Part shown: positions 11,699-64,000 of the stretch, piece after piece
Numbering within the stretch: the first letter of the stretch is position 1
Layout: each line of letters opens with the position of its first letter
Assembly: GCA_951813565.1 (NCBI GenBank)
Contig: OX638351.1
Coordinates: 4,096,001 to 4,160,000, forward strand
Origin: an uncultured Poribacteria bacterium
Lineage (GTDB): Bacteria > Poribacteria > WGA-4E > WGA-3G
Direction: 5' to 3'
Length of the DNA stretch: 64,000 bases
The notes under the pieces: model-generated
Told to the model about the DNA's origin: nothing
Databases searched by the model: none
The model's input: only the letters and a program-made list of their open reading frames with translations
Position numbers and translations under genes: made by a program

Positions 11699-11732
11699 CA
11701 AATCAACGCCAAATGCGCGTGTGGCATTTGTC
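11699..11732 (+). mobile_element. 34-nt CAAATCAAC-hairpin micro-insertion at a junction of two REP types
   Basis: TGTAGGGC[CAAATCAACGCCAAATGCGCGTGTGGCATTTGTC]GGGACTAA. Confidence 0.8.
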
Positions 11733-26841: not shown

Positions 26842-26879
26842 TATTAAGAGGGATAATGAATTGCGCGACTACAAACGCG

Positions 26880-37385: not shown

Positions 37386-38006
37386 CTATTTAGTGCTATC
37401 TGAAGTGGTGATGTTCCATAGGAGTATCGTTCCATCCGCACTTCCACTCACGAGCGTCCTACCATCCGTATTGAATGTGATACTATTGACATCTCCTGTA
37501 TGTTCCTTGAAGATCCGAATGTGTTTACCTGTAGCGACATCCCACAGGCGGATAGTATTGTCCGCACTACCACTTGCGATTGTTTTTCCATCCGGACTAA
37601 ACGCTACGCTTTTGACATCACCCGTATGTCCTTTGAGTGCCTGCTTTTGTTCACCTGTGCCTATATCCCATAAACGGATAGCGTAATCTGCCCAACCTTC
37701 ACCACTTGCAAATGTTTTACCGTCAGGACTGAACGCAATACAAGTAACATTTCTTGTATGACCTGTCAGTAGTGCTATTTCTTTATAGGTTGCCGTATCA
37801 TAAAGCCAAATACTGATTGAGCTTGCGACCGCGAAGTGTTTGCCATCTGGGGAATATTGTATCTGACTGATATAGCCTTTACCTAACCTTGCTGTGGCAC
37901 CTTCAGGTAAACTGAATTGCGGAGAATCTTGTGCAAAAACGTTCGGAAGATATAATATTGAGAGGATATACAATATTGAGAAAATGATAAATGATCGGTT
38001 TTTCAT
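37386..38006 (-). CDS. Short secreted WD40-repeat protein
   Basis: Signal peptide, LPEGATARLGKG, about 4 GH..WD repeats. Confidence 0.85.
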   Translation of the reverse strand: MKNRSFIIFSILYILSILYLPNVFAQDSPQFSLPEGATARLGKGYISQIQYSPDGKHFAVASSISIWLYDTATYKEIALLTGHTRNVTCIAFSPDGKTFASGEGWADYAIRLWDIGTGEQKQALKGHTGDVKSVAFSPDGKTIASGSADNTIRLWDVATGKHIRIFKEHTGDVNSITFNTDGRTLVSGSADGTILLWNITTSDSTK

Positions 38007-38128
38007 GCGGATTTCTTATTTTTACTGTGATTGATTGTAATACGCAGCATGTATCGATTAATGTGTGCATCTTCTGTTTTATAGTATTTCACAAAGATGA
38101 TGAAATGTCAACATTCACTTAAACAAAA

Positions 38129-38213
38129 CAGGGTTATTTATAGTGAACTTATTTACATAATTTACTATAAAATGTGAAAATATAGCCGAAAAATAGAAAA
38201 CTGAATAACCCTG
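38129..38213. mobile_element. Small MITE, CAGGGTTATT TIR family
   Basis: CAGGGTTATT..AATAACCCTG; same ends as 50512-50718 and a lone end near 11560. Confidence 0.6.
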
Positions 38214-38262
38214 AAACAGAAAAGAGGGCAGACCGTATGCCTACCCTCAATAAATCTAAATA

Positions 38263-40815
38263 TTATTTCTTTATCAACATCTTTTGTGTGGCTGTGAATT
38301 TTCCTGCTGTTAGCGTGTAGAAATAGACACCACTTGCAACTGACTCACCGATCTCGTTTTTGCCGTCCCAGTACGCTGTGCTACCTTTGTGTTGGTAAAG
38401 TCCTGCCGATTGATGTCCTAAAACTAATGTTCGAATCAGTTTAGCATCTGAAGAATGTATCTGGATTAATACATCGGCGGATTCTGCCAACTGATACGGT
38501 ATCCAAGTTTCCGGGTTGAAGGGGTTTGGATAATTAGGCAATAGAACAGTCTTTTTCGGTGTCAATGCTACCAACAACTTTTCAAGGAAACGGATACCTT
38601 TTTGTGATGTTGCATCCATCAGGTCAACCTGCTGTGCTTGTATCAACCATTTTTGCACATCGGCTCTTGTAAACGCGAACTTTAAGTCACGACCTAATCC
38701 TAAAGGTGCAGCGGCTGCATCATCTATCGCACCTGCAACCTTAATAAGATCGGCAATATTAACGACACCATCACCATTCACATCTGCAGGATTTGGACCT
38801 GTTTGCCCGAAGTTTGCGGCAACAACAACTAAATCGTTAACATCAATAACTCCATCACCATTTATATCTGCTTCATGTCGCGTAGGGTTGAATAAGGCAG
38901 CGAAATCCCACAATAGTATTATTCCTGTATCGACCGATAGTGCAAGCGTCTTACCATCGGGGCTAATTGTAAGGTTATAAAAACCTTCTGGTATACCCCT
39001 AAGCATTAATTTGAGTGCACCACTTTCCGGATCCCAAAACCGCAATGTTCTATCTTCCCAACCTCCTGCAGTTACGAGCGTTCGCCCATCCGGACTGAAA
39101 ATAACATGCTTAAACTTGCCAACATGCCCAGTGATAATTGTGTTTCTCTCGCCAGTGTGGACATTCCACAAATGTGCTTCCTGACCACTCCCACCAGCCG
39201 CAATCGTGTTCCCATCCGGACTGAATACGATATCGGTAGTTTTTGGTATGGAGCCAGTGTATGTTGTAATTAGTTTTCTACTTGCGATGTCCCACAAATG
39301 TATTCCGGCACTATCGCCATATACGAACTTGCGACTATCCGGACTGAACGTAATGTCTCCAACCCCTTTCTCAATTCCAGTGAACGTCCAAAGAAGATCA
39401 CCTGTGGCAGCATCCCAAAAAATGGGTTTTAAGTTAGTAGCGAAAGTTGTGAGAATCCGTCCATCCGGACTGAAGGTGACGCGATAGATGTCACGTTCAT
39501 GTCCAATAATCGTTGCTTTCTGGGATCCAGAGGGAACATCCCATAACCTTATCGGGTAGTCATCAGCAAACCATCTATCCTCATAAATTACGCCGCCGCT
39601 ACTGGCTATAGTTTGCCCATCTGGACTAATGGCAACCGATATGACTGGACCTATGTGTCCGAGGAAGGTTTTTATGTTTTTGCCGGATGTCGTATCCCAC
39701 AGTCGCACCGTTTTATCCCTACTTCCACTCACAATTGTGTGTCCATCTGGACTGAACGCTATCTCTGAGAAACCGGAGATATGTCCAGTGATTGTGGTTC
39801 TTTGCTCAAGCTTCTCCGCATCCCACAGAATGATAGTTCCATCCTTACTATAACTCGCAAAAGTAGTTCCATCAAGACTATATGCCACACTCGCGACGTC
39901 GTCAGTATGTGCTATGAGCGTCGTCTTATAATTACCTGTAGAAACATCCCACAGACATACTGTATTATCCATGCTACCACTTGCAAGGGTGCTACCATCC
40001 GAGCTAAACGCGACATCGTTGACACCACCTATGTGTCCTATAAGGGTGTTTTTCAGGGTGCTACTTGCAATATCCCACAGGTTGACATGTGCGGTCCATC
40101 TACCGCCACAACTTGCTATTGTGCTGCTGTCTGGACTAAATGCGATATTCGCATCATAAGGAAATCTATCTTCTGCCAATATGAAAGTTGCTTTGAGTTC
40201 AACAGTAGCAACATCCCATAATTTCATCGTAGTATTTTCCCCCTCATAACCACAACTGACAAAAACCGTTCCATCTGGACTGTAGGCGATGGTATCAACA
40301 CCACTTTTATGCCCAATTATAGTTGCTTTCAGCTCTCCGCTTGAAACATCCCAAAACTTGACTGTTCTGTCTTTATTAGATTGACTACATGTCGCGATTG
40401 TTTTTCCATTGGGGTTGAATGCTATATTTGTGATATATTTGGTATGTGCAGATATAGTTAGTTTGAGATTGCCAGTGTCAACATCCCATAAAAAAAGTTC
40501 GGAAGTATTATTACATGCAAGTTTTTTCCCATCAGGACTGAATGCAATATTGGAATAATAGTCTAAATTACTTGATAGCAAATTTAGTTCTTTACCAGTG
40601 AATCCATCATAGAGCCAAATCCCAATAGGAGTTGTGACTGCGAGTAGAGAACTATCTGGCGAGAAGGTGATATTACCAGTTATCTCTCCTTTCCCGATAC
40701 GCATTTTTGCACCTTCGGGCAAGCCCAACTGCATGTAGTTTTGCGAAAAAGCATTTGGTGTAAAGCAAATTAAAATAAGAACAAGCAGTAAAATGGTGGA
40801 TCGTATCGTTTCCAT
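38263..40815 (-). CDS. Secreted WD40-repeat protein with dockerin-like domain and T9SS-like C-terminal domain
   Basis: Many WD40 repeats; DINGDGVIDVNDL / DVNGDGVVNIADL; PNYPNPFNPETW; start at 40815 after AGGAG. Confidence 0.9.
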   Translation of the reverse strand: METIRSTILLLVLILICFTPNAFSQNYMQLGLPEGAKMRIGKGEITGNITFSPDSSLLAVTTPIGIWLYDGFTGKELNLLSSNLDYYSNIAFSPDGKKLACNNTSELFLWDVDTGNLKLTISAHTKYITNIAFNPNGKTIATCSQSNKDRTVKFWDVSSGELKATIIGHKSGVDTIAYSPDGTVFVSCGYEGENTTMKLWDVATVELKATFILAEDRFPYDANIAFSPDSSTIASCGGRWTAHVNLWDIASSTLKNTLIGHIGGVNDVAFSSDGSTLASGSMDNTVCLWDVSTGNYKTTLIAHTDDVASVAYSLDGTTFASYSKDGTIILWDAEKLEQRTTITGHISGFSEIAFSPDGHTIVSGSRDKTVRLWDTTSGKNIKTFLGHIGPVISVAISPDGQTIASSGGVIYEDRWFADDYPIRLWDVPSGSQKATIIGHERDIYRVTFSPDGRILTTFATNLKPIFWDAATGDLLWTFTGIEKGVGDITFSPDSRKFVYGDSAGIHLWDIASRKLITTYTGSIPKTTDIVFSPDGNTIAAGGSGQEAHLWNVHTGERNTIITGHVGKFKHVIFSPDGRTLVTAGGWEDRTLRFWDPESGALKLMLRGIPEGFYNLTISPDGKTLALSVDTGIILLWDFAALFNPTRHEADINGDGVIDVNDLVVVAANFGQTGPNPADVNGDGVVNIADLIKVAGAIDDAAAAPLGLGRDLKFAFTRADVQKWLIQAQQVDLMDATSQKGIRFLEKLLVALTPKKTVLLPNYPNPFNPETWIPYQLAESADVLIQIHSSDAKLIRTLVLGHQSAGLYQHKGSTAYWDGKNEIGESVASGVYFYTLTAGKFTATQKMLIKK

Positions 40816-40825
40816 CTTTTTTCTC

Positions 40826-43408
40826 CTATTTTCGTATGACCATGCGCCGTGTTGCAGTGAAGTTTCCAGCAGAAAGTGTATAAAAATAGATACCGCTCGC
40901 AACAGGTTCACCAAATTCATTTTTACCGTCCCAATGTGCTGCCTTATTTCGATTCTGATAGTTCCCGGCAGGCTGATTGCCTAATACCAATGCCCGAACC
41001 GACTGTCCATCAATAGAATAGATGCAAAGTGTGACATCTGCTGGGTTTGCCAACTGATAGGGTATCCACGTTTCAGGGTTAAACGGGTTCGGGTAGTTGG
41101 ATAAGAGCACTGTCTTTTCTGGAGTCAATACTGCTAAGAGTTGTTCAAGTACTGCAATGCCTTTCTGAAATGTTGGTGTATTGCTGTTAACTTGCCACGC
41201 GTGCGTTAACCAATGTTGTACTTCATCAGCAGTGAGCAATTCTATAGATTTCGATGCCACTGACGGAGCACCATTCTCATTAGCAAGCGCAGCAGCAACT
41301 AATAAGATATCCGCTATATTGATAACACCATCCCCGTTGACATCGGCAGCATTATCATCTCCCGACTGCCCAAATTGTGATGCAACAAAAATAAGGTCTT
41401 GCAAATCTACACTACCATCACGGTTCGCATCCTCAGCGAGTTGTTGTATTTCATTTTCAGTGCCTAACAACGAAGTATAATCCCATATAAGAACCGTTCC
41501 GTCCCTACTGCCACTTATAAGTGTTCTGCCATCAGGACTAAAGATTGCCTTGGATACACCATACGTGTGATCTGTGATGATTTTTTTCTGTTCACCAGTA
41601 GCAACATCCCAAATTTGTAAAGTTGAATCGCGCCAATTGCCACAACTTACGAGTGTCTTACCATCAATACTGAATGTAAGTTTATGTATCCCTTCGATGT
41701 GGTTAGTATGGATTACACTCGGATTACCAGTCGTAACATCCCATAGAATAATCGTGTTATCTTCACTTCCACTGGCGACTATTCTTTCATCAGAGTTAAA
41801 TGCCACACATTTTACCTTATTTGTATGTCCAGTGAAAGTTGCTATATTTGATCGGGAGGTAAAATCCCAAAAACGTACTGTACCATCATAACTTCCACTA
41901 ACAAGGGTGCGGCTATCACGACTAAAAACAATTGATGTCACCTCATCTGTATGCCCTATAAGCGCGTCAATATAGGTGCGCCCCATATACCATAAATGTA
42001 TTGTTTTGTCACTATGTCCTGCAGCGATGAATTGACCGTCTGGGCTGAAAGCAAGGGAATTATAACCTCCTGATAAGGCCGACGTGTTTTTTTGTCCATG
42101 ACCATACCACTTATAAATGGTATTAATTGGGGTGGTACTGGAAACGTCCCAAAGATGAATTGCCCCAAAATCCAAACTTGCAAACGTGTTGCCATCCGGA
42201 CTGAAAACTAAATCATAATGATTTGAGTGCCTTCCTCGTCCATATATAAACTTTTTGTATTCGCCTGTGATAGGATTCCACAGGTGGATATTATCCCAAC
42301 TCGAAGTGGCGAGGAGATTACCATTTGGACTGATTGTTATTCCTGCAACGCCTATTGTATGTCCAGTAATAGACAATTTGCGCGTCCTACTTTCAACATC
42401 CCATAGATACAAATCTCCGCCTCCACCACTCGCGAGTGTTTTGCCATCAGGACTGAATGCGACATAACTGCCCCCCAGTTCTCCTCCGAATTCGGTTAAG
42501 TGTGTTCCTGTAGCAAGGTCCCATAGATGCAAACCTTTAAAACCGCCGGTTGCGAGCGTGTTCCCATCTGGACTTACAGCAATACTATTGAGCGATAGCG
42601 CATCAAATTCAATTATCTTCTTTCCAGTGTTAACATCCCACACCTGAATATCGTCGTACGTATCCCCACTTATGAGCGTGTTCCCATCTGGACTGAACAA
42701 AAGATAACTTATTCCTCGCGCATACTTGGACAAAGTGGTTTTGTGTGTAGCAGTGTTAACATCCCATAGTCTTAGGGTGCGATCCGAACTTGCACTTGCA
42801 AGCGTAGCACCATCCGGACTGAAGACAATATATCCTACCCATTTAGTATGTCCTTCAAGAGTCGCATTTTGCTCTCCAGTGGTAAGGTCCCAAAGATGAA
42901 TAACTTCGTCACTGGCACCAGCCAGCATCCGCCCATCTGTACTAAAAGCGATACGGTGAATATCCGCAGTATCTCCTTTTAGTATTACTTTAACCCTACC
43001 ATTTGTTAAGTCTCGCAATTGTACTGTATCGTCTGCTTCCCTGCTAACATACATGCTGACATCCGGACTCACTCCCAATATGTTACCTGGATTCACTGCA
43101 ATTAAATCCAGTTCAACACCCGTGTGTGCATCATAGATCCAAAAACCTATACTACTTTTAACAATTACCCGATTCCCATCGGGTGAAAACGTGATATTAC
43201 CGACACTTCCCTTGCCAAGACGTAATTTAGCCCCTTCAGGCAAATCCCATCGGGTATAGTCTTGCGCAAAAGTGTTCTGTAGGAATAGGGTTGAAAGCAC
43301 TAAGAGCAATAAAATTGGATTTTTTATCTGAAATTCAAAAAGGTGTTTGTGACGTAAATTATTTTTCACGCTTTTTGTATGAGTATTTTGGGATTCAATA
43401 GCTCTCAT
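40826..43408 (-). CDS. Secreted WD40-repeat protein with dockerin-like domain and T9SS-like C-terminal domain
   Basis: WD40 repeats; DANRDGSVDLQDL / DVNGDGVINIAD; SNYPNPFNPETW. Confidence 0.9.
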   Translation of the reverse strand: MRAIESQNTHTKSVKNNLRHKHLFEFQIKNPILLLLVLSTLFLQNTFAQDYTRWDLPEGAKLRLGKGSVGNITFSPDGNRVIVKSSIGFWIYDAHTGVELDLIAVNPGNILGVSPDVSMYVSREADDTVQLRDLTNGRVKVILKGDTADIHRIAFSTDGRMLAGASDEVIHLWDLTTGEQNATLEGHTKWVGYIVFSPDGATLASASSDRTLRLWDVNTATHKTTLSKYARGISYLLFSPDGNTLISGDTYDDIQVWDVNTGKKIIEFDALSLNSIAVSPDGNTLATGGFKGLHLWDLATGTHLTEFGGELGGSYVAFSPDGKTLASGGGGDLYLWDVESRTRKLSITGHTIGVAGITISPNGNLLATSSWDNIHLWNPITGEYKKFIYGRGRHSNHYDLVFSPDGNTFASLDFGAIHLWDVSSTTPINTIYKWYGHGQKNTSALSGGYNSLAFSPDGQFIAAGHSDKTIHLWYMGRTYIDALIGHTDEVTSIVFSRDSRTLVSGSYDGTVRFWDFTSRSNIATFTGHTNKVKCVAFNSDERIVASGSEDNTIILWDVTTGNPSVIHTNHIEGIHKLTFSIDGKTLVSCGNWRDSTLQIWDVATGEQKKIITDHTYGVSKAIFSPDGRTLISGSRDGTVLIWDYTSLLGTENEIQQLAEDANRDGSVDLQDLIFVASQFGQSGDDNAADVNGDGVINIADILLVAAALANENGAPSVASKSIELLTADEVQHWLTHAWQVNSNTPTFQKGIAVLEQLLAVLTPEKTVLLSNYPNPFNPETWIPYQLANPADVTLCIYSIDGQSVRALVLGNQPAGNYQNRNKAAHWDGKNEFGEPVASGIYFYTLSAGNFTATRRMVIRK

Positions 43409-43460
43409 AGGTTTGCGTTCCTATTTGATTCGGTTCTTTTCAACAACTGTAATAGCAATT

Positions 43461-43476
43461 AGCAAATCTGATGCCA
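43461..43476 (-). promoter_or_regulatory. Putative sigma54 (-24/-12) promoter
   Basis: Reverse strand TGGCATCAGATTTGCT (GG-N10-GC), about 50 nt upstream of the 43408 start. Confidence 0.6.
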
Positions 43477-44057
43477 GTTTTGAGTTATTGTTGAAAGTAC
43501 AAATAGGTTTCGTTTAGCAGGAATTTTTTAGCATTGATGGGCGGTTATATCGTCAAAAAGCAACATCATTGCCCATAATTTGAACATTTACAGCCATTAT
43601 AGTTCAAAGGCAAGGTTAGGGTGTTCCGTGTCAAGAGGGTAGCCTGCACGAAAACGGGCAATTATGGTGCATGTTGCACGATATAGTGCATTTGTGGAAA
43701 GAAGATTAGATTGTGTGGCTCATGTAAAGAATGAGTGCTAATCAAAAGGTTTAACCCGCGTGGCCATTGCCTTCATTAAAAACAACCGCACACACTTTTT
43801 ACATGAGCGGATTGTGTTATATTGAAAGTTGAAGATATGTGAACACCCTATGATAGACGCGGTTTCAAACCGTGCCTATTACAGGGTGTAAATGATTATA
43901 CGTTTTCTATAATGGATATGTGTTAAGACAGTGGAAAAATGGGCGCAGTAAAAGAGTGTAAGAAAAGAAATCAGTACGCGGACGTAAGGTAAGTCTGCGA
44001 GTTACATCTCACAATTATAGATGAACGCTGACATTGTCCCTATGCTGCGCAAACTGC

Positions 44058-46946
44058 CTATTTCAAAATAACCATTTTGCGCAGGAGCGACATATTGTCC
44101 GCCTGCAGTTGATAGAAATAGAGACCGCTGGCAACTTTTTCCCCAACATCGTTTTTACCATTCCAAAAAGCTGCGCGACTCCGATGCTGATAAAGTCCGG
44201 CAGCCTGTTGTCCCAAAAGTAGGGTCCGTATCAACTGTCCATCGGCAGAATAGATGCGGATTGTCACATTGGCGGATTCTGCCAACTGATACGGTATCCA
44301 AGTTTCCGGGTTGAAGGGATTTGGATAGTTTGGAAGAAGGGCAGTTTCTTGCGGAGTCAGTGCTGCCAGTAGTTGTTCCAAAACCAAGATGCCGCGTTGG
44401 AAAGCAGGATCGGAATGTGCAAGTTGTTTAGCATCCCGCAACCACTGTTGCACCTCTGTTTTTGTCGGAGCGTTTTCAAGGTCGTAACTCCAGATTGCCG
44501 GCGCAGCACTTGAAGAACTTGTCATAGCAGCTGCAACCAACGTAAGGTCTACGATATTGACAATTCCATCACCGTTCACGTCCGCAAGGTTTTCACCCAC
44601 CTGTGTAAAATTAGATGCGACTAAAGTCAAATCTTGTATATTTACAACGCCGTCTCCATTCAGATCCTCTTGCTGGCGTACAGGTTCCGCTACCTGTCCG
44701 GTCCTAACGCGCGCATAATAAACGTTACCAGTGCTATCAGTCAATCGCACATTAGACACAGTTAGTTTAGATGCCTTAGGCGCAAGAACTTCAAAGGTGA
44801 TGTTTGCCAACGTTCCCATCCCAAATCCTTCTCCAGCAAGAGATGTTGCAGCGAGCGTAACAGTGTTTTCCGTAATAATTGGCTGCACGGAAAATGCCCC
44901 CATTGGTAAAAAATTAGCATTTGCACTTTCGACATAACGGAGCGCTGAGGCATCATACCTAATAGTTGCCTGATATCCGGCTACGCTACCAGCGTCTTCA
45001 ATATTAAGTGAGAACGTAAGCTGCCCATCTATAGCAGGAGACTGCAGAGAAGGTGGAGATAGACTTACAGTCGCATAAGTGTTGGTTGGGGGTGTAAAAT
45101 TCCATAGGAGCGTTGTGCCATCTGAGCTGCTACTGGCAAGCGTCCTTGCATCCGGACTGAACGCTATGTCAAGGATGCCGCCTGTATGCCCAGAAAACGT
45201 TTGTATATGCTGACCAGATACCGTATCCCATAAACGGATAGTACGATCGCCGCCAGCACTGGCAAGTGTTTCACCATCGTTACTAAAAGCGACGCTCCAG
45301 ACTAAATCCGTATGTTCAGTAAAATTCTGGAGTTCTACGCCAAAGACAATATCCCATATTCGGACAGTATTATCGTCACTACCGCTGGCAAGCATGTCGC
45401 CATTTGGACTAAAAGCGACGCTCCTCACGAAATCCGTATGCCCAATAAGTGTTTGCTGGGGTTCACCGGAAGCGGTATCCCATAATATGATAGTGTCATC
45501 TGCGCTACCACTTGCAATCGTCTCTCCATCTTCACTGAAAGCAACGCTTAGTACCGCATTTGTGTGTTCATCGAATGTTCTCAGTTCTTCTGCAAGAGCA
45601 GTATCCCATAATTTGATAGTACCGTCTTCACTACCGCTCACAATCTTGGACCCGTCAGGACTGAAGGCAATGCTCCAAACCCAATCTTCGTGTCCAATAA
45701 GCGTGTCAATGTGTTCACCGGTAAAGGCATTCCATAACCGGATAGTCCCATCGTCACTACCACTTGCCAGTGTGTTTCCATCAGGACTGAAGGCAATGCT
45801 CCATATCCAATCCTCATGTCCTATTAACATCTGTTGGTGTTGCCCTGTGGTAGCATCCCATAGATTAATCGTATTATCTGCACCACCTGTTGCTACTACG
45901 TTTCCATTAATGTTGAAGCCAACACTTAAAATATAATTTGTATATCCAGTAAGTACCTGTCGCTGTCCTCCAAAGACAGGATCCCACAACCGAACAGTCC
46001 CATCGGCACTGCCACTTGCAAGCGTTCCTCCACTTGAATTGAACGCTACACTTAAAACAACATTTGTATGTCCAGGGAGTTCCTGCTGAGGTTGCCCAGT
46101 AACAGCATCCCACAAAAGGATAGTCCCATCGGCACTGCCACTTGCAAGCGTATTTCCATTTGGACTATATGCCACACTATAGACGGTACCCAGATGTCCG
46201 GGTAGAGTCTGCTTTGATACACCGAAGGCAGTATACCAAAGTCTTACAGTACCATCTCGACTGCCACTTGCGAGTGTTCCTTCATTTGGACTGAACGCTA
46301 CACTGTAAACAGAATCTTCATGCCCGGTCAGGATGTGTTGTTGTTCACCAGTTGCAACATCCCACAGTTGGACAGACCCGTCTAAACTGCCACTTGCGAG
46401 CGTTTCTCCACTCGTACTAAAAGCAACGCTCGTAACAGCATCAAAATGTCCGGGAAGTGTCTGCAGATTTTCACGAGTAATATAATTCCAAAGTTGGATT
46501 GTGCTGCCACCATGGCCACTGGCAAGTGTTTGACCATCTGAACTAAATGCCAAACTCAAGACTACGTCTGTGGGGCCTGTAAGATCCTCTTGATGTTCGC
46601 CAGTTGTTGCATTCCAGAGTTTAATTGTTCCATCATCATGGCCACTGGCAAGTGTCTGACCATCCGAACTAAATGCAGCACAGTAAACAGTCTGTGTATC
46701 TTCAGTGAGCAATCTTATTTCTTCATAGGTTTGTGCATTATAGAGCCAAATACCGATGGAACTGACTACCGCCAAACGTGTGCCATCTCGCGAATATGTA
46801 AGCTCAGCTATCCTTCCCTTTCCGAGACGCGCTTTCGCGTTGTCGGGTAAACTAAATTGTGAGGCGGTTTGAGCAAAGGTTTCGGTAAGAAAAAATGACA
46901 AAACAAGAAGTTGGGTAAAAAAAATAAAAAATAACGTCTTTTTCAT
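44058..46946 (-). CDS. Secreted WD40-repeat protein with cohesin-like, dockerin-like and T9SS-like C-terminal domains
   Basis: Regular WD40 repeats; VAGYQATIRYD..GTLANITFEV; DLNGDGVVNIQDL; PNYPNPFNPETW; start at 46946. Confidence 0.9.
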   Translation of the reverse strand: MKKTLFFIFFTQLLVLSFFLTETFAQTASQFSLPDNAKARLGKGRIAELTYSRDGTRLAVVSSIGIWLYNAQTYEEIRLLTEDTQTVYCAAFSSDGQTLASGHDDGTIKLWNATTGEHQEDLTGPTDVVLSLAFSSDGQTLASGHGGSTIQLWNYITRENLQTLPGHFDAVTSVAFSTSGETLASGSLDGSVQLWDVATGEQQHILTGHEDSVYSVAFSPNEGTLASGSRDGTVRLWYTAFGVSKQTLPGHLGTVYSVAYSPNGNTLASGSADGTILLWDAVTGQPQQELPGHTNVVLSVAFNSSGGTLASGSADGTVRLWDPVFGGQRQVLTGYTNYILSVGFNINGNVVATGGADNTINLWDATTGQHQQMLIGHEDWIWSIAFSPDGNTLASGSDDGTIRLWNAFTGEHIDTLIGHEDWVWSIAFSPDGSKIVSGSEDGTIKLWDTALAEELRTFDEHTNAVLSVAFSEDGETIASGSADDTIILWDTASGEPQQTLIGHTDFVRSVAFSPNGDMLASGSDDNTVRIWDIVFGVELQNFTEHTDLVWSVAFSNDGETLASAGGDRTIRLWDTVSGQHIQTFSGHTGGILDIAFSPDARTLASSSSDGTTLLWNFTPPTNTYATVSLSPPSLQSPAIDGQLTFSLNIEDAGSVAGYQATIRYDASALRYVESANANFLPMGAFSVQPIITENTVTLAATSLAGEGFGMGTLANITFEVLAPKASKLTVSNVRLTDSTGNVYYARVRTGQVAEPVRQQEDLNGDGVVNIQDLTLVASNFTQVGENLADVNGDGIVNIVDLTLVAAAMTSSSSAAPAIWSYDLENAPTKTEVQQWLRDAKQLAHSDPAFQRGILVLEQLLAALTPQETALLPNYPNPFNPETWIPYQLAESANVTIRIYSADGQLIRTLLLGQQAAGLYQHRSRAAFWNGKNDVGEKVASGLYFYQLQADNMSLLRKMVILK

Positions 46947-47107
46947 TGTAGTATTCTCCTTTTGAAGGTAATTGGCTGCTATATGTTGCATGCAAACAAT
47001 TTGATTGATGTCTTTTTCTAAAGTATACCACAAAGACGGTGAGAATGCAATTTTACGTGGGAATGGGTGTAGGTTAGAATATTGGTAGGCATCAAATTAC
47101 TACAGTC

Positions 47108-47285
47108 TATCTCATAAATTGTTAAATACGGTTCCTTACACAGGATCTACATTCATCGTAGGGGCGGGTCCCCGGTGAATGCCAAAAGGCATTCGGACCG
47201 TTGATTTGGTGCCCGCCCATTGTTTACACTTATGAGAGAGATGGCGAGGCACAGAGACCTCGCCCTACAAATGATTTATGAGATA
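47108..47285. mobile_element. MITE-like element (TATCTCATAAAT TIR) with REP doublet and 35-nt micro-insertion at 47174-47208
   Basis: TATCTCATAAAT / ATTTATGAGATA; reverse-strand CAAATCAACGGTCCGAATGCCTTTTGGCATTCACC in GGGCAC^GGGGACCC. Confidence 0.7.
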
Positions 47286-47337
47286 CGCTCTAATGCTTTG
47301 GCTGCTTGATTTTGGTTTTTGTCAGTGTGATAAGAGT

Positions 47338-48237
47338 TTATGACCAGACAAACACTTCGTTATCATCTGGGGAATATCCGATGAATACAGCCAAAACAAT
47401 TCTTGCACGTGTGCCCTGAACAGCTGGTACTTCGTGGATGCAACGGGTGTTGAAAAAGTATAGGTCCCCTTGTTCCAAATTGACCTGACAGTTTTCTATT
47501 CTGTTCTCGGCTGCGTAGCTATCAAACGTTTCTGCTGCAATATGTGGTTGAACGTCTTCAGACCAAAGGCATCGGTGTAGGATAGCTTGTGTTCCTTTTC
47601 CGGTTGCATCCGCATTTTGCACACACAACACACCTGCAAACTGATGTTCAAAGCGATAAACAGCGTAATCGGCCCGTTGTTCACGATATTTGACACTGTC
47701 AATGTGCGGTTTATAACTATGTGTTTCGTAGTGAACGCGGAAGATAGCTGGACCATAAAGTGACCCGTCAGGTTCACGCGCGACTTTAACCTCTTTTCCG
47801 GGAGAAAGCGCAGCAAGAGTGTCATAAATCAAGTCAACAGGGTTTTTGAAGCCATCAAATAAGAATTGAAATAGATGATGCGTTGCTTCAGCATGTGCTA
47901 AAAAACGGGTTTTTTCGCTACCACGATTACCAAGACTCGTGCCGATGTCGATACGGGTACGTTTGTCGGCAGAGTTGATGTCCGCTTCGTCTCGCATCAG
48001 TCCCATGTTGGTGAATCTATTGATGAGTCCATGACATTGTGCGGGGGAATAGGCATTACGTAAAATAATGGCAGGTATTTCCGCTTGTGATAGCGAATAG
48101 ATCGGGTCCTTATATTTTTCGCAAACCGCTTTGAGATTAGGCTCTGCTGGAAGCCAATTTGTGTTATTTTGCATAAGATACTCACTTTGTAAATCCGCGT
48201 GATTCACTTCATTTGCGGTGATCAGCGATATAGACAA
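47338..48237 (-). CDS. 2OG-Fe(II) oxygenase superfamily protein
   Basis: HID, GDLYFFN..IHEV, distal Arg (ARIVL); start uncertain. Confidence 0.7.
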   Translation of the reverse strand: MSISLITANEVNHADLQSEYLMQNNTNWLPAEPNLKAVCEKYKDPIYSLSQAEIPAIILRNAYSPAQCHGLINRFTNMGLMRDEADINSADKRTRIDIGTSLGNRGSEKTRFLAHAEATHHLFQFLFDGFKNPVDLIYDTLAALSPGKEVKVAREPDGSLYGPAIFRVHYETHSYKPHIDSVKYREQRADYAVYRFEHQFAGVLCVQNADATGKGTQAILHRCLWSEDVQPHIAAETFDSYAAENRIENCQVNLEQGDLYFFNTRCIHEVPAVQGTRARIVLAVFIGYSPDDNEVFVWS

Positions 48238-48251
48238 TTTTATGCAGCGAT

Positions 48252-49079
48252 TTAGAATTTCGGATTGAAAAGGTAATCATCCATTTTCTCATTTACGAAT
48301 TCTGCATTATGGTCAAGTTCGCTATTTTCAAAAGCGGCTTCACATCCGGTTTGGTACTTCAGTCGTCTGCCAGAACGGAGCCAACGGATACGGTGGATCA
48401 TCGCTATCATGTGGCGTGGTTCATCGGATAGGTTTGGGACGCCGCGGTGCCAGAGCCGCATGTCTCGAATCAACACGCTTCCCTTTTTCGCATTCCCACG
48501 GATAGGCGGCGCGATTTCACGTCGTTCTGCCTCATGTTCTTCGTCTATGTGTCGATCACTGACATCCAGATGCGATCCGGGCCAGAGTTCTACACTGCCG
48601 TTCTCTTCTGTTGTATCCTGAGGTGAGATATTCACAACCACTTCAGCTGCTGGGTGTGCAACTTGCTGATTTAACCAGAGATGATCACCGTCTCTGTGGA
48701 GCGGTTGCGTGCCGCTACCAGGACAGTTGGTGTTGCCGTTATAGAAATTATTGTAGACCCCAGCACCGAGCAGTTCCTGTGTTATCTGCACGACGTAAGG
48801 ATTGGCAACGATGTCGCTAAAAATATATGGCGCAAACGGTGGCGGTCCCTGCTGAAGATGTCCCTTGAGCATTCCTGCACCACCCCATTTTCCTGCCTTA
48901 ATCAACTTTTGCGAATCAGCATCCATCCGTTCGCGAAGAATATCCAAATGTTTATGGTTAACAATGTTTTCTATGACGACACATCCATCAACACGGATAG
49001 CTTCAATCGCTTTTTTGAGGTGCGTTTCTGAGAACTTGCCTGCGGTTAATTCTTTAGGTTGAGCTTTTACCACTACCAT
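48252..49079 (-). CDS. Phytanoyl-CoA dioxygenase (PhyH) family protein
   Basis: QPLHRD, ENGSVELWPGSH, RLWHRG, PRHM. Confidence 0.9.
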   Translation of the reverse strand: MVVVKAQPKELTAGKFSETHLKKAIEAIRVDGCVVIENIVNHKHLDILRERMDADSQKLIKAGKWGGAGMLKGHLQQGPPPFAPYIFSDIVANPYVVQITQELLGAGVYNNFYNGNTNCPGSGTQPLHRDGDHLWLNQQVAHPAAEVVVNISPQDTTEENGSVELWPGSHLDVSDRHIDEEHEAERREIAPPIRGNAKKGSVLIRDMRLWHRGVPNLSDEPRHMIAMIHRIRWLRSGRRLKYQTGCEAAFENSELDHNAEFVNEKMDDYLFNPKF

Positions 49080-50427
49080 TGAAAAATTCCTTGTAGAGTG
49101 CTTGAACTGCAGTGTCCATATCCGTTGACTTTACACCGAACATCATGCTGACTTCATTTGAACCTTGGTTGATCATCTCTATATTGACTTTTGCGCCTGC
49201 TAACGCCCCTGTTGCTCGTGAAGCAATGCCAACAGTATGCCGCATACCTTCACCGACAACCATGATGAGAGATAACTCGCGTTCTACAAAAACATCTTCT
49301 GGCGCAAGCGTTTGCCGAATCTTTTCCACAACCCTTTTCTCTTTGTCCGCAGGTAAGTTTTCTTCGCGAAGGATGACAGACATGTTGTCTATGCCAGAGG
49401 GGATATGTTCAAAAGAGATGTTTTCGCCTTCCAAAATCTGTAGCAGCCGTCTGCCGAATCCGATTTGCCGATTCATTAGATATTTGCTAAGGTAGACACA
49501 ACAAACATTGCTCATCGCAGCAATCCCAACAACAGGCATTTCCGTTGAAGTACGATGTGGAACAATCAGGGTGCCGGATGCTTTTGGGTTATTGGTATTT
49601 CGGATGTGGACTGGTACCATTGCACGATATACGGGTTCAAGTGCCTCATCGTGAAATACTGAGAAGCCGGCGTAAGAGAGTTCGCGCATCTCACGGTAGG
49701 TTAGTTCCGAAATTGGGACAGGATTTAATACTATTGACGGATTTGCAGCGAATACGGAGTCAACATCTGTGAAATTTTCGTAAACTTCTGCTCGAACCGC
49801 ACTGGCAAGAATCGCACCTGTAATATCTGAACCGCCGCGAGAGAAGGTAACAATGTGATCTTCTTTGGAATAACCGAAAAATCCTGGAAAAATTGTAATG
49901 CCGGGACGTTCGCTTAGACTTCGCAAGCGACTGTATGCTTCGGGTAAAACCTGGGCATTGCCAGGTTCATCTGAGAGTAGTAAACCTGCATCTTTCGGAT
50001 TCACATAGTGTGCTTCTACGCCTCGCGCCTGCAGCACCTGTGCAATTAGACGAGCGCAATTGTCTTCTCCACCTGCTTTCATCGTATCCATATAGAGGTC
50101 AGCATCATCTGTGCTGTTTTCAAGACGTTGTGTTAAGTCGCGTGCAATAGGGTCAACGACCTCATCAGGGAGTTCCAATTCAGAAGCAATATTCCGATAA
50201 CGTTCAATAGTCTCAGCACATTCCGAAGCACCGATTTTTCCCATCAGCCGCTCCGATGCTGCTGCAATCAGCAGGTCGGTTACTTTTATATCTTCACTGT
50301 GACGTTTTCCGGGTGCTGATACGACAATTAACCTTCGTGCTGGGTCAGCTGTGATGATGTCACATACTTGGCGAACCTGCTCTGCTGTCGCGAGGGAACT
50401 CCCCCCAAACTTTGATACTTTTAACAA
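49054..50427 (-). CDS. lysC: Aspartate kinase
   Basis: KFGGSS, VVSAPGKR, SRGGSD, TDVD, ACT domains; TTG start. Confidence 0.92.
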   Translation of the reverse strand: MLKVSKFGGSSLATAEQVRQVCDIITADPARRLIVVSAPGKRHSEDIKVTDLLIAAASERLMGKIGASECAETIERYRNIASELELPDEVVDPIARDLTQRLENSTDDADLYMDTMKAGGEDNCARLIAQVLQARGVEAHYVNPKDAGLLLSDEPGNAQVLPEAYSRLRSLSERPGITIFPGFFGYSKEDHIVTFSRGGSDITGAILASAVRAEVYENFTDVDSVFAANPSIVLNPVPISELTYREMRELSYAGFSVFHDEALEPVYRAMVPVHIRNTNNPKASGTLIVPHRTSTEMPVVGIAAMSNVCCVYLSKYLMNRQIGFGRRLLQILEGENISFEHIPSGIDNMSVILREENLPADKEKRVVEKIRQTLAPEDVFVERELSLIMVVGEGMRHTVGIASRATGALAGAKVNIEMINQGSNEVSMMFGVKSTDMDTAVQALYKEFFNGSGKSST

Positions 50428-50511
50428 TCCATATCCTCCAATCCAATATTGTATGTTCAGGACAATTATATCACAGTTCTAATTTAAATGAAATAGATTC
50501 CAAATCAAGGT

Positions 50512-50718
50512 AGGGTTATTCAGTTTTCGAAATTTTTTTTACAAGTGTTTATTTTTTATGAAAAGCAGATATAGCGTGTTTTTTTACAACATATCTGCTA
50601 TAGTTCACCTTAAAACGACCTATTTTGAGGTGAATAATGACAAGAAGAAAATCTTGCCACTTAATAGAAACTCGCAGTTAACCTTATAAAATGAAAATTT
50701 ATAAAACTGAATAACCCT
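50512..50718. mobile_element. MITE with perfect 16-bp TIR
   Basis: AGGGTTATTCAGTTTT / AAAACTGAATAACCCT. Confidence 0.75.
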
Positions 50719-50800
50719 GATACCAAAACAACTTGACACTTTCCTGCTTTGCATGGTATTTTTTAACATTCTAAACCTATTTTTTAGGCGAGGTGAAATC

Positions 50801-59927: not shown

Positions 59928-60221
59928 TATTTTCTTAAGTTGCAATGTAACTCTTTCGCAAATATTTGGAGTGTTTAGTTAGACATAGGACTTTATGACA
60001 TAGGCACATACCAAGTGCCTTAATGCTGTAGGCGCGCCTGTCCCTCTCCCCTAAAGGTGCGCTTACAAAATCGCGATTTGGGTAGGCGCGCTAATCAAAT
60101 CGCGATTTATGGTGGTAGCGGTCTTCGGATCGCTACTGTCTTTTTTATAGTAGATTTTATACCATTTCCATGTGATTATATTGCATTGTGTCTTAGGTCA
60201 AGTTTCACTATGCCCTACCCA

Positions 60222-60465
60222 TAGGTGTCAACTTAAGAAAAAAATGATGGATTTTCTCTTGTGGGAGGGAAACTTTGTCCGCCCGATTTTGTGAGACTCA
60301 AACTGTTAAATCCAAATCAACGATGAATGCGCCTATGGCATTCATCCAAATCAACGCAGCATGCGCGTCCGACATGCTGCCAAATCAACGCTGAATGCGC
60401 GTGTAGGCATTCAGCGGGGTTGAAAACCCCTCCCACAAGAAGGTGTATCCTTAAGTTTACACCTA
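60222..60465. mobile_element. MITE (same end family as 9487-9700) with REP doublet and triple micro-insertion array
   Basis: TAGGTGTCAACTTAAG / CTTAAGTTTACACCTA. Confidence 0.75.
60313..60415 (+). repeat. Tandem array of three different CAAATCAAC-hairpin units
   Basis: Units 60313-60346, 60347-60380, 60381-60415. Confidence 0.9.
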
Positions 60466-60608
60466 TGGGTAGAGTGAAGCGAAACCCAATTCAACCGTCT
60501 TGACAGTCCTAAAGAGTTGGGTTTCACTTATTTTCAGAAATATAGACCTCAAATGGGTCAACAACCTCTCTTTAGGGTTTGTTTTTATTGTCCATTTCCG
60601 TTCTACTT

Positions 60609-60641: not shown

Positions 60642-60753
60642 CCCTACCGGATTTATCAAACTCACGTTACATTAACGACTTGTGCCAGTTAACATTTTGT
60701 TTTGTTGGTTTTCACATATATTTGCATTTGTGCTATAAACATATCGTCCCTAC

Positions 60754-60822
60754 CAAATCAACGCCAAATGCGCCAAATCAACGGTCCGAATGCCTTTTGG
60801 CATTCCCCGTATGGCATTTGGC
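60754..60822 (+). mobile_element. Micro-insertion with a second unit nested in its loop (60774-60808)
   Basis: CCCTAC[CAAATCAACGCCAAATGCGC[35 nt]GTATGGCATTTGGC]GGGACTAA. Confidence 0.9.
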
Positions 60823-60873
60823 GGGACTAAAGAGTGCTCGTCCAATCATTTTCTATAAACATATCGTCCCTAC

Positions 60874-60907
60874 CAAATCAACGCCAAATGCGCTTATGGC
60901 ATTTGTC
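60874..60907 (+). mobile_element. 34-nt micro-insertion
   Basis: CCCTAC[CAAATCAACGCCAAATGCGCTTATGGCATTTGTC]GGACT. Confidence 0.85.
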
Positions 60908-61055
60908 GGACTGAAGAACATATAAATATATGATAATGACTTACAAACATTTTCTTTTGTGAAATAAAGTTCTACATATGGTTATTTAGCACAACTCGTT
61001 ACACTAACAAACAACTGAGTAAAGAAAAACCTTTAACTTTCATCTTAAATTCCTC

Positions 61056-61826
61056 CTAAGGGTTTAAGCCTAAAAATTCATACACATCAAATCCACTTGA
61101 GTCGTAATCAAGGATACGAATCCCTGGCGTTTTCTCTCCTGCTCGAATTTTTGCTTGGGCTTCTGAAGACAAGACATTAGAATCTCCAACAAAACTGACT
61201 ATTTTAGATGTTCCGTTAGCTGTTTTCGTCTCTTTGGTCCGAACATATACCGTATTCGGTGTAACGACATATATTTTCTGAGTATGACGATCTAAACTAA
61301 GTTTAACATCAGTTTGCCCTTGTTTCCATAATTTAATACGGACGCGATCAAGCAACTCCCTTGGCCGAAGGGTATCATGATGACCCTCTCGGTCAAGATC
61401 GAAAGTCCAAAACGGCCGATACGCATCAGGATAATCCGATGGAATTTGAGGATAGGCACCAAACCCATAGTCTGACTCACCATAGGAAGCAATTCGCCAA
61501 TCATTGGGATCTGCTGCAAGTTTTGCCACGTCCTCAATATGTTCTAAGGGTACACCTTTCTCAGAAGATTCAAGTGGTGTTTCGGAAGTTTCGTTTGCAG
61601 GATCCAGTGGTTTTTCCTCTGGGGTTTCTGTGTTCTCTGCAACGGTTTGTTCCGTTGGTGTTTTACCATCTTTACTGGACGCATCCTTACGAACCTGACT
61701 AAAGTCTGGTACATTATAGACTTTTTTCTCAGCGGTAGGAGGCTTAGGTTTCAAGAGAATAAACCCACCAACGCCAATAACAACAATAAGTACCAGCAGC
61801 CAATGCCAATTTTTGCGCCAATACAT
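61056..61826 (-). CDS. N-terminally membrane-anchored hypothetical protein
   Basis: One TM helix, low-complexity linker, YGFGAYPQIPSDYP domain; GGAGG upstream. Confidence 0.75.
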   Translation of the reverse strand: MYWRKNWHWLLVLIVVIGVGGFILLKPKPPTAEKKVYNVPDFSQVRKDASSKDGKTPTEQTVAENTETPEEKPLDPANETSETPLESSEKGVPLEHIEDVAKLAADPNDWRIASYGESDYGFGAYPQIPSDYPDAYRPFWTFDLDREGHHDTLRPRELLDRVRIKLWKQGQTDVKLSLDRHTQKIYVVTPNTVYVRTKETKTANGTSKIVSFVGDSNVLSSEAQAKIRAGEKTPGIRILDYDSSGFDVYEFLGLNP

Positions 61827-62299: not shown

Positions 62300-62665
62300 A
62301 TGGCAGACGAAAATGGTAATAACGAACTTGCTGAAAATACAGATCATAACGCTTCAGGAAGCGGATTTATTGTAAACGTCAATCAGCTGCAATCCATGGA
62401 TATTCCGCTGCGATTTAACCGCGTCAAAACAGATAATGGTTGGATTATCAATGTGCAGGAAGCAGGAAGAGTAACAGTAAACTTTTTAACCAGTATGAGA
62501 AAATTGGAGACTGCATTGGTCGCGGGTGATAGCATTGAGCGGGATGGTGACGACCTTATAATCATGCGAAGCCAGCCAGCCGATGCATATCGCTCACAGC
62601 GAGGCACTTCCCCGTTAACGCTTAGTCGTGAGGAGTTGTTGTCAACTACCCCATCAGCGAAGTAA
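62300..62665 (+). CDS. Hypothetical protein
   Basis: 121 aa ORF with promoter and Shine-Dalgarno. Confidence 0.7.
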   Translation: MADENGNNELAENTDHNASGSGFIVNVNQLQSMDIPLRFNRVKTDNGWIINVQEAGRVTVNFLTSMRKLETALVAGDSIERDGDDLIIMRSQPADAYRSQRGTSPLTLSREELLSTTPSAK

Positions 62666-62891: not shown

Positions 62892-63037
62892 CAAGTTGCT
62901 ACTTACAAAATTTTGAACAAAAAGACGATGTTTTTCCTAAAAAACAAGGGTTTTTCGTTGATTCTGGATGTCTTTTGTTATAAATCGGGGTTAGAAACCC
63001 CTCCTACAAGAGAATTTACGAAATCGGTAGCAACTTG
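62892..63037. mobile_element. MITE-like element (CAAGTTGCTAC TIR) with a REP arm
   Basis: CAAGTTGCTAC / GTAGCAACTTG; internal AAATCGGGGTTAGAAACCCCTCCTAC. Confidence 0.55.
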
Positions 63038-63164
63038 GGTTATATTTCAGAAAGATTTACTTAACCGAACTATTTTTATAAGCCATATTAATTTTCGTAT
63101 TAGGAGGTACCAGACCATTTTAGAACGTATCTACAGACTTATTTCAAGTTTAAAAGGTGGAACA

Positions 63165-63635
63165 ATGGTGCCGACAGCTGTAGTGCTGAGTCCCGATAGT
63201 TACGCGGAAGTTGTTGCTGAACTATTTGAAACATCCGAATCGGAAGGTGATGAAGCACAGGGACTTGAGCATCAACTGGGATTACCTCCTATTTCAGTTC
63301 GGTCAGATGATACGGATATTGTCGTTGTAAAGGAATTGGTGCCGAACCCGTGTCCAATTTGCCATCATCCGCTTAAGTTTCTCCGAGAATTGATTGAACG
63401 GTTTGAGAAGGAAGAAACCAATTTGATTAGGTGTCCGCTTGGACACCGCTATTCCGGGATGATGAAGGTTTACCATTTGAACATTTTTCAGCAATCGGAA
63501 AACTCCGAAACGGTGAAAAAAGTTACTGAATGCCCAGCATGTGGCGGTAAAAAAATCCAGTACTTAGGTCCAGCGGAGATGTTTTGTTTAGATTGTGACT
63601 GGGATAGTGGTATGGTTGCTCGGTATAAAATGTAG
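63165..63635 (+). CDS. Hypothetical double zinc-ribbon protein
   Basis: CPIC, CPLGH, CPAC, CLDC; start at ATG 63165 after AAGGTGG. Confidence 0.65.
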   Translation: MVPTAVVLSPDSYAEVVAELFETSESEGDEAQGLEHQLGLPPISVRSDDTDIVVVKELVPNPCPICHHPLKFLRELIERFEKEETNLIRCPLGHRYSGMMKVYHLNIFQQSENSETVKKVTECPACGGKKIQYLGPAEMFCLDCDWDSGMVARYKM

Positions 63636-63747: not shown

Positions 63748-63880
63748 GACAAGTCATGGCGAATACCACACGCGTATTCGCCCAAGTGCGCTTGGCGTTG
63801 ATTTGGCAATGAATTGCGCTTGGTGAATGCGCCAAATCAACGGTCCGAATGCCTTTTGGCATTCCCCGTATGGCATTCAC
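63748..63880. mobile_element. Cluster of nested micro-insertions in both orientations
   Basis: Minus-strand unit 63748-63805 with inner hairpin 63758-63782; plus-strand unit 63833-63867 nested in GTGAATGCGC^GTATGGCATTCAC. Confidence 0.75.
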
Positions 63881-64000
63881 ATTAAACGCCGCTAACCTTA
63901 AGAATAATGTAAAGGTATTTTTAGATTTTACTATAATAGGATTTAAAGTTTCATAGCAAACAGTCAGGAAGAAAGTGCTGGAGTGTGTAAGCGCGTTTTA

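Follow-up and report, generated by a model that had tools for sequence, protein, structure and literature searches.

How repeats of only a few dozen bases spread through bacterial genomes is unsettled. For repetitive extragenic palindromic (REP) elements there is a candidate enzyme and little direct evidence of movement, and for the small dispersed repeats (SDRs) of cyanobacteria we know of no mechanism. Here we analyze a 64-kb window (the whole stretch of DNA studied) from an uncultured Poribacteria bacterium, whose genome teems with very small hairpin repeats that form one modular family. Each unit of this family carries a conserved 10-nucleotide (nt) head, CAAATCAACG, followed by a single hairpin, and at two places in the window one unit sits inside the loop of another hairpin. 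As judged by analogy, the closest described counterparts of these units appear to be the REP elements with their REP-associated tyrosine transposases (RAYTs) and the SDRs of Nostoc.

REP elements and the bacterial interspersed mosaic elements (BIMEs) are described as short (20–40 nt), abundant, imperfect intergenic palindromes with a conserved unpaired 5′ motif beside the stem, and they are thought to move as folded single strands by means of a Y1 enzyme of the HUH class (excerpts of PMC2817692, PMC3733652 and PMC3116915). The Poribacteria units, at 34–36 nt, are likewise abundant, extragenic and imperfectly palindromic: we distinguished 141 of them, and 65 of 67 central units lie outside the flanking open reading frame (ORF) calls. 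Several sequence families occur per genome and are clustered into mosaics, and REP-like hairpins of the source genome that carry a GTAG tag act as hosts, as read from the sequence. The differences are that the conserved end is CAAATCAACG and not GTAG or CGTC, GTAG being found in the hosts rather than in the units; that the units stand alone, follow one another as direct tandems or nest with a shared orientation, whereas the REP doublets known as REPINs are inverted; and that precise boundaries and a defined CG target can be seen at their insertions. Nesting of a unit within the loop of another unit is not mentioned for REP elements in the accessible part of PMC3733652.

In the excerpted text of PMC4390886, SDR5 inserts between the third and fourth bases of the HIP1 sequence GCGATCGC, and SDRs are said to be reported only in Nostocaceae (PMC5861425, in part). 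The units resemble SDRs in being very small, dispersed, proposed to be mobile and precisely inserted at a fixed short target, a likeness of behavior and not of membership. Elhai et al. in 2008 reportedly described the Nostocaceae SDRs as hairpin-forming families of 21–27 nt that are nested in one another. Compared with SDRs by description only, the units differ in their greater length, their 10-nt head, their CG target and their phylum. A cyanobacterial origin was rejected and identity with the SDRs is improbable, as HIP1 occurs once in the window against 0.52 expected and the family is placed in Poribacteria. According to the accessible portion of PMC6006769, elements of the IS200/IS605 family have no terminal inverted repeats or target duplication, depend on hairpin recognition and insert beside a short specific single-stranded sequence; the units also have neither terminal inverted repeats nor target duplication (GCGC, unit, GTATGG when filled, as against GCGCGTATGG). 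IS1397 inserts into palindromic units, that is, REP hairpins (PMC3116915, in part), and ISPpu9 of the IS110 family targets REP hairpins too (PMC12288879, in part). Both choose the hairpin of a resident repeat as the landing site, but each is a complete insertion sequence that brings its own transposase, whereas the incomer here is a 35-nt repeat of the host's own superfamily. [quoted passage not shown] The units share with them a non-autonomous, intergenic and structured nature and presence or absence between relatives, and differ in their size and in having neither inverted ends nor duplication; a separate MITE-like block (~47110–47300) bears one unit as cargo.

Rfam 15 gave no match at gathering score in the whole window. 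No description of the CAAATCAACG hairpin family was found in the literature on Poribacteria repeats and transposases, a search outside which most subscription journals lay, and the head motif was met there in primers only. The family is thus apparently undescribed, and the nests are apparently one visible corner of a phylum-wide set of very small nested hairpin repeats. The units offer exact boundaries, a defined target, strict orientation and filled and empty sites within a genome, which makes the spread of tiny repeats testable by census, by co-occurrence with enzyme genes and by oligonucleotide assays; subtype target preferences and many chromosome-scale assemblies are available as well. 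Moreover, nested palindromes fill intergenic regions of Poribacteria and will affect assembly, alignment and the annotation of promoters and terminators in uncultured sponge symbionts.

Two nests in the window and their recurrence

Units of type A (canonical, 34 nt) consist of the head, an 8-bp variable stem enclosing a GCNNNNG loop, and a final C after the second arm. Units of type B (bulged, 35–36 nt) consist of CAAATCAACG-G, a 3-nt bulge, GAATGCC, a 4–5-nt loop, GGCATTC and CCC. One 35-nt type B sequence, CAAATCAACGGTCCGAATGCCTTTTGGCATTCCCC, is present in exact copies at 60774–60808 (+) and 63833–63867 (+), and with one mismatch at 47174–47208 (−); none of 100 dinucleotide-preserving shuffles gave a match to it. 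The first copy comprises the head, G, bulge TCC, stem GAATGCC/GGCATTC, loop TTTT and tail CCC, and the second is identical to it. Both exact copies interrupt the loop of a larger hairpin, with ...ATGCGC before and GTATGGCAT... after the unit, which bears out the statement of the initial annotation that an identical bulged unit occupies two loops. The flanks read ...CAAATCAACGCCAAATGCGC, unit, GTATGGCATTTGGC GGGAC at the first site and ...TTGGTGAATGCGC, unit, GTATGGCATTCACAT at the second. The outer stems differ, as had also been noted: CCAAATGC/GCATTTGG at 60764–60771/60814–60821 as against GTGAATGC/GCATTCAC at 63823–63830/63873–63880. The window contains 2968 CG dinucleotides and six host-type loops with GCGCG, and two of the three copies of CAAATCAACGGTCCGAATGCCTTTTGGCATTCCCC occupy the equivalent CG of two host-type loops. 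By our own arithmetic this has a probability of ~1e-5 under random use of CG sites, so the placement of the two copies is not due to chance.

The first host is a type A unit (60754–60822, +), split into 60754–60773 (head, CCAAATGC and GC) and 60809–60822 (GTATG, GCATTTGG and C). It was recovered at level 2 of a script that strips simple units and then re-scans the sequence (peeling). Scripted removal of the inner unit turns 60754–60822 into the canonical 34-nt unit CAAATCAACGCCAAATGCGCGTATGGCATTTGGC, exactly as had been claimed. This outer unit in turn interrupts a third hairpin at its loop, GTCCCTAC^GGGAC (60746–60827, +; arms 60746–60753 and 60823–60827), which is part of an 85-nt composite repeat CTATAAACATATCGTCCCTAC...GGGACTAAAGAG; three levels are thus nested at the first site. 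An uninterrupted CGTCCCTACGGGACTAA is found near 11778–11794. The second host (63820–63882, +; stem GTGAATGC/GCATTCAC) has the form TTGG-TGAATGC-GC^GTATG-GCATTCA-CAT and adjoins a REP-like GCAATGAATTGCGC. The initial annotation had treated this outer hairpin as a unit; the hairpin is there, but it has no head and is flanked by TTGG and CAT.

Because C both precedes the insert and ends it, the junction can be drawn at either of two adjacent positions (GCGC^G or GCG^CG), a 1-nt ambiguity. The predicted single-stranded DNA fold of 60743–60832 is one stacked nested hairpin of −19.4 kcal/mol (shuffles −10.0 ± 2.2, z = −4.3), in which the G and T after the insert pair with C and A of the insert's head, so that the target G would complete the stem of the incoming unit. 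The second site folds into a similar shape (−17.0 kcal/mol, z = −2.3).

To place these nests in a wider sample, we scanned species-representative genomes with the pattern CAAATCAACGN{4,6}ATGCN{5,9}GCAT, which matched at least 122 loci, at least 109 of them titled as metagenome-assembled genomes of Candidatus Poribacteria. Two loci titled "uncultured bacterium" (L076 and L104) also hold genuine units, and 11 lone matches in other phyla were excluded as chance. The working sample, to which the counts below refer, was the window plus 111 listed loci (handles beginning with L); the loci come from 31 assemblies, the window's source genome not among them, which makes 32 assemblies with the window. 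The closest relative among the matches listed is L036, with 89% identity across window positions 45398–50486. After peeling, the distinct simple units numbered 67 of type A and 74 of type B. Within the window alone, the head with at most one mismatch occurs 23 times against 6.6 expected, and the stricter pattern of head, ATGC and GCAT nine times against 0 expected. Changes in the stems of the 67 type A units are paired (position 2, C-G 50, T-A 9 and A-T 7; position 3, A-T 47 and G-C 19; position 4, A-T 58 and C-G 7; position 7, G-C 63 and A-T 4), which indicates that the hairpin rather than its sequence is preserved. Since the parser is blind to hybrid units and to hosts with 10-nt arms, so that peeling yielded just two interrupted headed hosts (in the window and L089), nests were counted from junction patterns, and nested simple units were identified by the 5′ flank alone.

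The junction AT[GA]CGC followed by CAAATCAA... occurs 25 times, in 10 of the 32 assemblies. At 22 of these junctions the host loop continues with GT[AG]TGG right after the inner element, as read from the printed rows, and the other three are more complex (two in L041, one in L071); in the two of L041 the inner unit is type A-like with multiplied heads. These results uphold the proposal that the units are themselves targets. The hosts are diverse, 7 of 17 listed being headed units and 10 headless TTGG...CATGA hairpins, and nests reach a depth of four (for example L015, 3062). Five of the listed records are titled as chromosomes, and nests occur in two of them, OZ244563.1 and OZ244889.1. Other Poribacteria chromosomes encountered are OZ242381.1, OY763324.1 and OY282386.1. 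The third-level host GTCCCTAC^GGGAC likewise carries units in L027, L034, L054, L079, L088, L089 and other loci.

Target specificity and empty sites

The insertion site is narrower than a CG. Strict junctions at GCGC^ number 22, as against zero at each of the alternatives, namely the neighboring (first) CG of the loop, the position one base earlier and the inverted orientation; the junction CG is the second CG of the loop, and the inner unit has the orientation of its host in every case. An inverted unit in the host loop would also read C^G, yet this arrangement is unused (0 versus 22–25). The rule that insertion occurs at C^G, advanced in the initial annotation, holds with a refinement: empty sites keep one CG and C and G prevail as flanks, but the dinucleotide alone is insufficient to define the target. 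The third loop position is G in 49 of 79 uninterrupted host-type loops as opposed to all interrupted ones.

The subtypes also differ in their surroundings. The base before the unit is C for 61 of 67 type A and 48 of 74 type B units after peeling, many of the other 5′ flanks belonging to double-headed units whose start was set one head too late; the base after the unit is G for 63 of 67 and 67 of 74, respectively. Type A targets nearly always have the 3′ context C^GGG, with G at +2 in 57 and at +3 in 58 of 67 units, and type A units usually reside in REP-like hairpins tagged with GTAG, for example TTGTAG-GTC^GGGT... and TTGTAG-GGC^GGGG.... Type B units enter GCGC^GT[AG]TGG: the loop flank AT[GA]CGC is carried by 15 of 74 type B units and by none of 69 simple type A units. 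Type B rather than type A is found in GCGC^GT loops because the subtypes prefer different contexts. Inverted unit pairs occur (L021, L050 and L063) and are not the rule.

Several sites can be compared with and without the inner unit. Two loci of one assembly, L089 (351) and L054 (5086), have the same outer unit and agree in its flanks over tens of bases, and a 36-nt type B unit at GCGC^GTATGG is the sole difference between them. In the window, the first nest belongs to a tandem repeat with a spacing of 120: the filled copy (60733–60852) is followed by an empty counterpart (60853–60930, +) containing an unbroken type A unit (60874–60907, loop GCTTATG), and the inner unit is the sole difference. 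In L096, the second host lies beside the same REP-like GCAATGAATTGCGC and an inverted unit, and its loop, GCTTGTG, is unbroken and has no CG at the site. Because empty sites retain a single CG at the junction (GCGCGTATGG; CCCTACGGGAC), insertion entails no target duplication. The filled and empty paralogues of the window, of L089/L054 and of L096 support the earlier claim that the bulged subtype was inserted later, with the caveat on excision given below.

Orthologous regions also vary. At 8328–8333, L036 lacks the ~190-nt MITE-like block that bears the third copy in the window. In the next intergenic region, L036 (4760–5140) has a full nested composite, where the window (50500–50720) has only an orphan head, CCAAATCAAGG, at 50500–50510. 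These two regions are bounded by the inverted pair AGGGTTATTCAGTTTT / AAAACTGAATAACCCT, and the composite of L036 adjoins a gene for an HNH endonuclease (L036, 4159–4593).

The initial annotation had suggested that nesting would reveal the insertion order of the subtypes. The nesting of B in A dates each insertion after its host copy; it does not order the subtype families, because only loops that contain CG can be hit. The loops of type B (ATTTA, TTTT) have no CG, and no interrupted type B loop was seen in the rows examined.

Interpretation and alternative explanations

On balance, we think it probable that the units are mobile but non-autonomous DNA, inserted with precision at CG and without duplication, and that the nests formed when type B units entered resident loops; an enzyme of the HUH/Y1 kind may mobilize them. 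For one part of this reading, the precise site-specific insertion of a mobile unit, our confidence is high. The single-strand intermediate, the class of the enzyme and the choice between copying and cutting are what we infer beyond this, and an HUH single-strand mechanism is proposed tentatively. In each nest, a type B unit probably entered a resident hairpin from its own superfamily, at the CG that lies two bases inside the GCGCGTATG loop. The G beside the insert, joined in loops by the next T, would then pair with the head of the newcomer (..AC-G) and lengthen its stem, which would give one stacked hairpin within a hairpin. Under the proposed mechanism, the folded single-stranded unit would be recognized by a trans-acting HUH/Y1-type enzyme (RAYT- or IS200-like), cleaved at C^C on the left and at C^G on the right, and ligated to a further C^G in single-stranded form. 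The strand bearing the host hairpin may present these sites in hairpin loops and in REP stems that breathe, which could be why the inner unit is always in the orientation of its host. The presence of GTAG-tagged REP-like hairpins in the source genome suggests that a RAYT-type system may exist there too.

A number of observations weigh against this interpretation. Among the 132 ORFs nearest to units in the 10-kb loci, 123 were searched with Pfam (nine longer than 1000 aa were left out), and none encoded a Y1 transposase; Pfam and NCBIfam found no transposase in 46 ORFs of the window, and a crude HUH...Y motif, a weak test, was absent from all 1451 open frames. The 123 ORFs yielded one TnpB (OrfB_IS605, L002 3522–4640) and one HNH protein, and the end hairpins of the TnpB element, CCCAATCCTTTAGGTTTGGG, bear no relation to the units. 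Unit orientation was unrelated to local GC skew (33/27 and 19/20, Fisher p = 0.68), and an IS200/IS605-like insertion would be expected to show a replication-strand bias. In IS200/IS605 elements the two subterminal hairpins are unlike each other and a tetra- or pentanucleotide target lies on just one side, in contrast to the single hairpin of a unit and the conserved bases, C and G, on both of its sides. The inverted doublet of REPINs does not match a single hairpin either. The filled and empty pairs may equally reflect precise excision from the empty copies. Furthermore, some nests are inherited or are carried inside larger repeats, as in L087 and in the MITE-borne copy of L035, so that gene conversion, and not recent insertion, could be part of the reason why copies in the window are identical.

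No RAYT was found in the 123 flanking and 46 window ORFs either, a survey of ~0.8 Mb of ~31 genomes in which a single-copy gene is easily missed. The 11 ORFs with unit heads on both sides are ordinary-looking. The TnpB of L002 belongs to a TnpB-only element of the IS605 family (3350–4720; 373 aa, OrfB_IS605 and Cas12f1-like TNB), which implies that single-strand transposon machinery exists in Poribacteria. In the 5.5-Mb record OZ244563.1, all sampled units (in L057, L118, L119, L016, L067, L044, L095, L052 and L055) as far as 2.52 Mb are on the + strand, and all those from 2.67 Mb onward are on the − strand. This switch has the pattern of a replichore bias, which the other assemblies and the local GC skew are without.

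We also considered a bolder interpretation, which we regard as possible but doubtful: that these are phylum-wide single-hairpin elements of 34–36 nt that transpose as units and whose targeting reads the CG together with the fold and strand of the host, that their enzyme or mechanism lies outside REP-RAYT and IS200/IS605, and that the nests record successive insertions. If so, the units would rank with the smallest mobile DNAs so far known and offer a natural system in which to learn how such elements move.

Among the explanations without repeated insertion, the one that survives best, and that we still consider unlikely, is that the nested composite had a single origin and spread as part of larger repeats, such as the 85-nt tandem composite and the MITE-like blocks, while gene conversion kept the inner units alike. 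The triple nest GTCCCTAC^[A[B]]^GGGAC is indeed common to the window, L089 and L036, and the composite stands in tandem arrays both in L088 and in the window. L087, from another species, contains a decayed homologue of the second nest, with a decayed insert (83% identity over 131 nt), on account of which the second nest, or its site, may be old. The third copy in the window lies in a block with a homologue at another locus of a different assembly (L035, 4920–5105; 79% over 193 nt), with a type B unit at the equivalent internal site. In addition, the motif GTCCG is found in all three headed type B units of the window and in a headless type B hairpin (1727–1756), as opposed to none of 71 type B units from 21 other assemblies among the listed loci. 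In our reading, this genome-private signature reflects one master copy that gave rise to a recent burst in the lineage of the window, and gene conversion could account for it too. A single origin is at variance, however, with the two hosts in the window, which are different kinds of hairpin with unrelated flanks, and with the mixture of headed and headless hosts across the sample. The empty paralogue L054, whose outer unit and flanks are identical to those of L089, shares an assembly with its filled counterpart, and in assembly CBDCOJ the block-borne type B unit is not homogenized with the other type B units of that genome.

The nested form could instead be a selected functional structure, such as a protein-binding site or an RNA element, that recurs through selection, a view to which we give little credence. 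The type B consensus, GTATGAATGCCATTTAGGCATTCCCC, is constant in many species whose genes are just 79–89% identical, and the units are intergenic, as noted above; recognition by a mobilizing enzyme would conserve the sequence equally, though. The absence of an Rfam match, the variation between orthologous regions, the spread of the units over tandem (37), divergent (14) and convergent (7) intergenic regions and the lack of a preferred orientation relative to genes all run counter to it. Terminator-like placement was also rejected: relative to genes, 16 units have the same and 27 the opposite orientation, which is no preference.

Local replication errors at quasi-palindromes (template switching, slippage or fold-back synthesis) would require no transposition and would explain how paired changes maintain stem complementarity; the 9-nt tandem runs of heads, CAAATCAAG-AAATCAAG-AAATCAACG, resemble slippage as well. 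Nevertheless, local copying is unable to place identical 35-nt units at sites that are unlinked and separated by 3 kb and 13 kb, it leaves one type B consensus in at least 10 assemblies unexplained, and the boundaries are exact and invariably at the same phosphodiester bond. The identical unlinked copies largely refute this explanation, which we consider very improbable. Misassembly of two separate loci can practically be dismissed, because the whole nest of 69 nt is shorter than a sequencing read, excision gives back a perfect hairpin, and the junction recurs in nine other assemblies, including the two chromosome-titled records named above.

Other units, hosts and genes

The headless host at 63820–63882 belongs to a third hairpin class, 'type C', GCGC-TTGG-[NNGAAT(A/G)C loop G(T/C)ATTCNN]-CATGA, which stands in place of the center of a type A or B unit at ~16 sites in the listed loci and is the most frequent host of nested type B units. 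The other example in the window (63750–63805, −) is a headed unit, head to head with the second nest, whose center is replaced by a TTGG-GCGAATAC..GTATTCGC-CATGA hairpin; a clean one-point insertion could not be derived for this composite (TTGG-hairpin-CATGA). Heads are multiplied in 9-nt steps in L041 (4914–4945), L089 (592) and L002 (~5040–5080). Headless type B hairpins invariably come after another unit, as ...C-GG-GTATGAATGCC. An example is the doublet at 1691–1756 (+), in which a headed type B unit (GAAATCAACG..GTCATTCACC) is followed by GG and by the headless hairpin with the window-specific GTCCG mentioned above. Given the multiplied heads and the trailing headless hairpins, the head may be a separable module or prone to slippage.

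The third type B copy (47174–47208, −; its mismatch gives ...CACC) lies in the loop of GGGCGGG-CAC^GGGGA-CCCGCCC within the MITE-like block. This block (47103–47309, −) has inverted ends ..TCTCATAAATCATT / AATTTATGAGA.. and holds two GTAG-tagged hairpins besides the unit.

Three type A units stand head to tail at 60313–60346, 60347–60380 and 60381–60415 (+), with stems ATGAATGC, CAGCATGC and CTGAATGC, and abut GGGGTTGAAAACCCC. They are stacked at the 3′ C^G, and since each 3′ junction of the array recreates C^G, repeated insertion could build such head-to-tail stacks. The region 60200–60490 around them is a multi-layer palindromic mosaic: the array lies within concentric inverted repeats, CTTGTGGGAGGG (60258–60269)/CCCTCCCACAAG (60428–60439) and, farther out, CCCTACCCATAGGTG../..CACCTATGGGTAGAG. 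A related one-unit host at 29129–29202, a direct repeat with 82% identity, has the same context and carries a type A unit with stem CTGAATAC (29169–29202, +).

Three more type A units were located in the window. One (11699–11732, +) lies between ...TTGTAGGGC and GGGACTAAAGAG. Another (9622–9656, −) is in the 5′ arm of the GTAG-tagged REP-like hairpin TTGTAG-GGC^GGGG-TCTCTGTG-CCCCGCC, a host identified by eye. The last (26179–26212, −) comes after GTAGTCGCGCAATTCATTGC^, and its host is uninterrupted at 9748–9781 and 26845–26878. Families of GTAG-tagged REP-like hairpins are found at 9600–9670, 9748–9781, 26213–26240, 26845–26878 and 60416–60439; with members such as TTGTAG-GGCGGGG..CCCCGCC, GTAGTCGCGCAATTCATTG and GTAGG-AGGGGTT..AACCCC, they are habitual landing sites of type A at C^GGG.

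A gene with DUF6785/DUF6784 has an adjoining unit in three genomes (window 23863–25815, −; L039 5116–7020; L049 2968–4896). The units are, respectively, the type A unit in a REP hairpin at 26179–26212, a type B unit nested in a headless hairpin and a plain type B unit. This difference in kind suggests that the intergenic region was occupied independently in the three genomes.

Three ORFs lie between the two nests, 61056–61826 (−), 62300–62665 (+) and 62913–63635 (+). None has a Pfam or NCBIfam match and nothing ties them to the repeats; the last has several CxxC pairs and is zinc-ribbon-like. Domains recognized among the proteins of the window include WD40 arrays and Por_Secre_tail. A series of large WD40-repeat proteins, with a DNA period of 126 nt, extends over 37386–47033, and this run is an instance of the eukaryote-like repeat proteins that typify the gene content of sponge symbionts.

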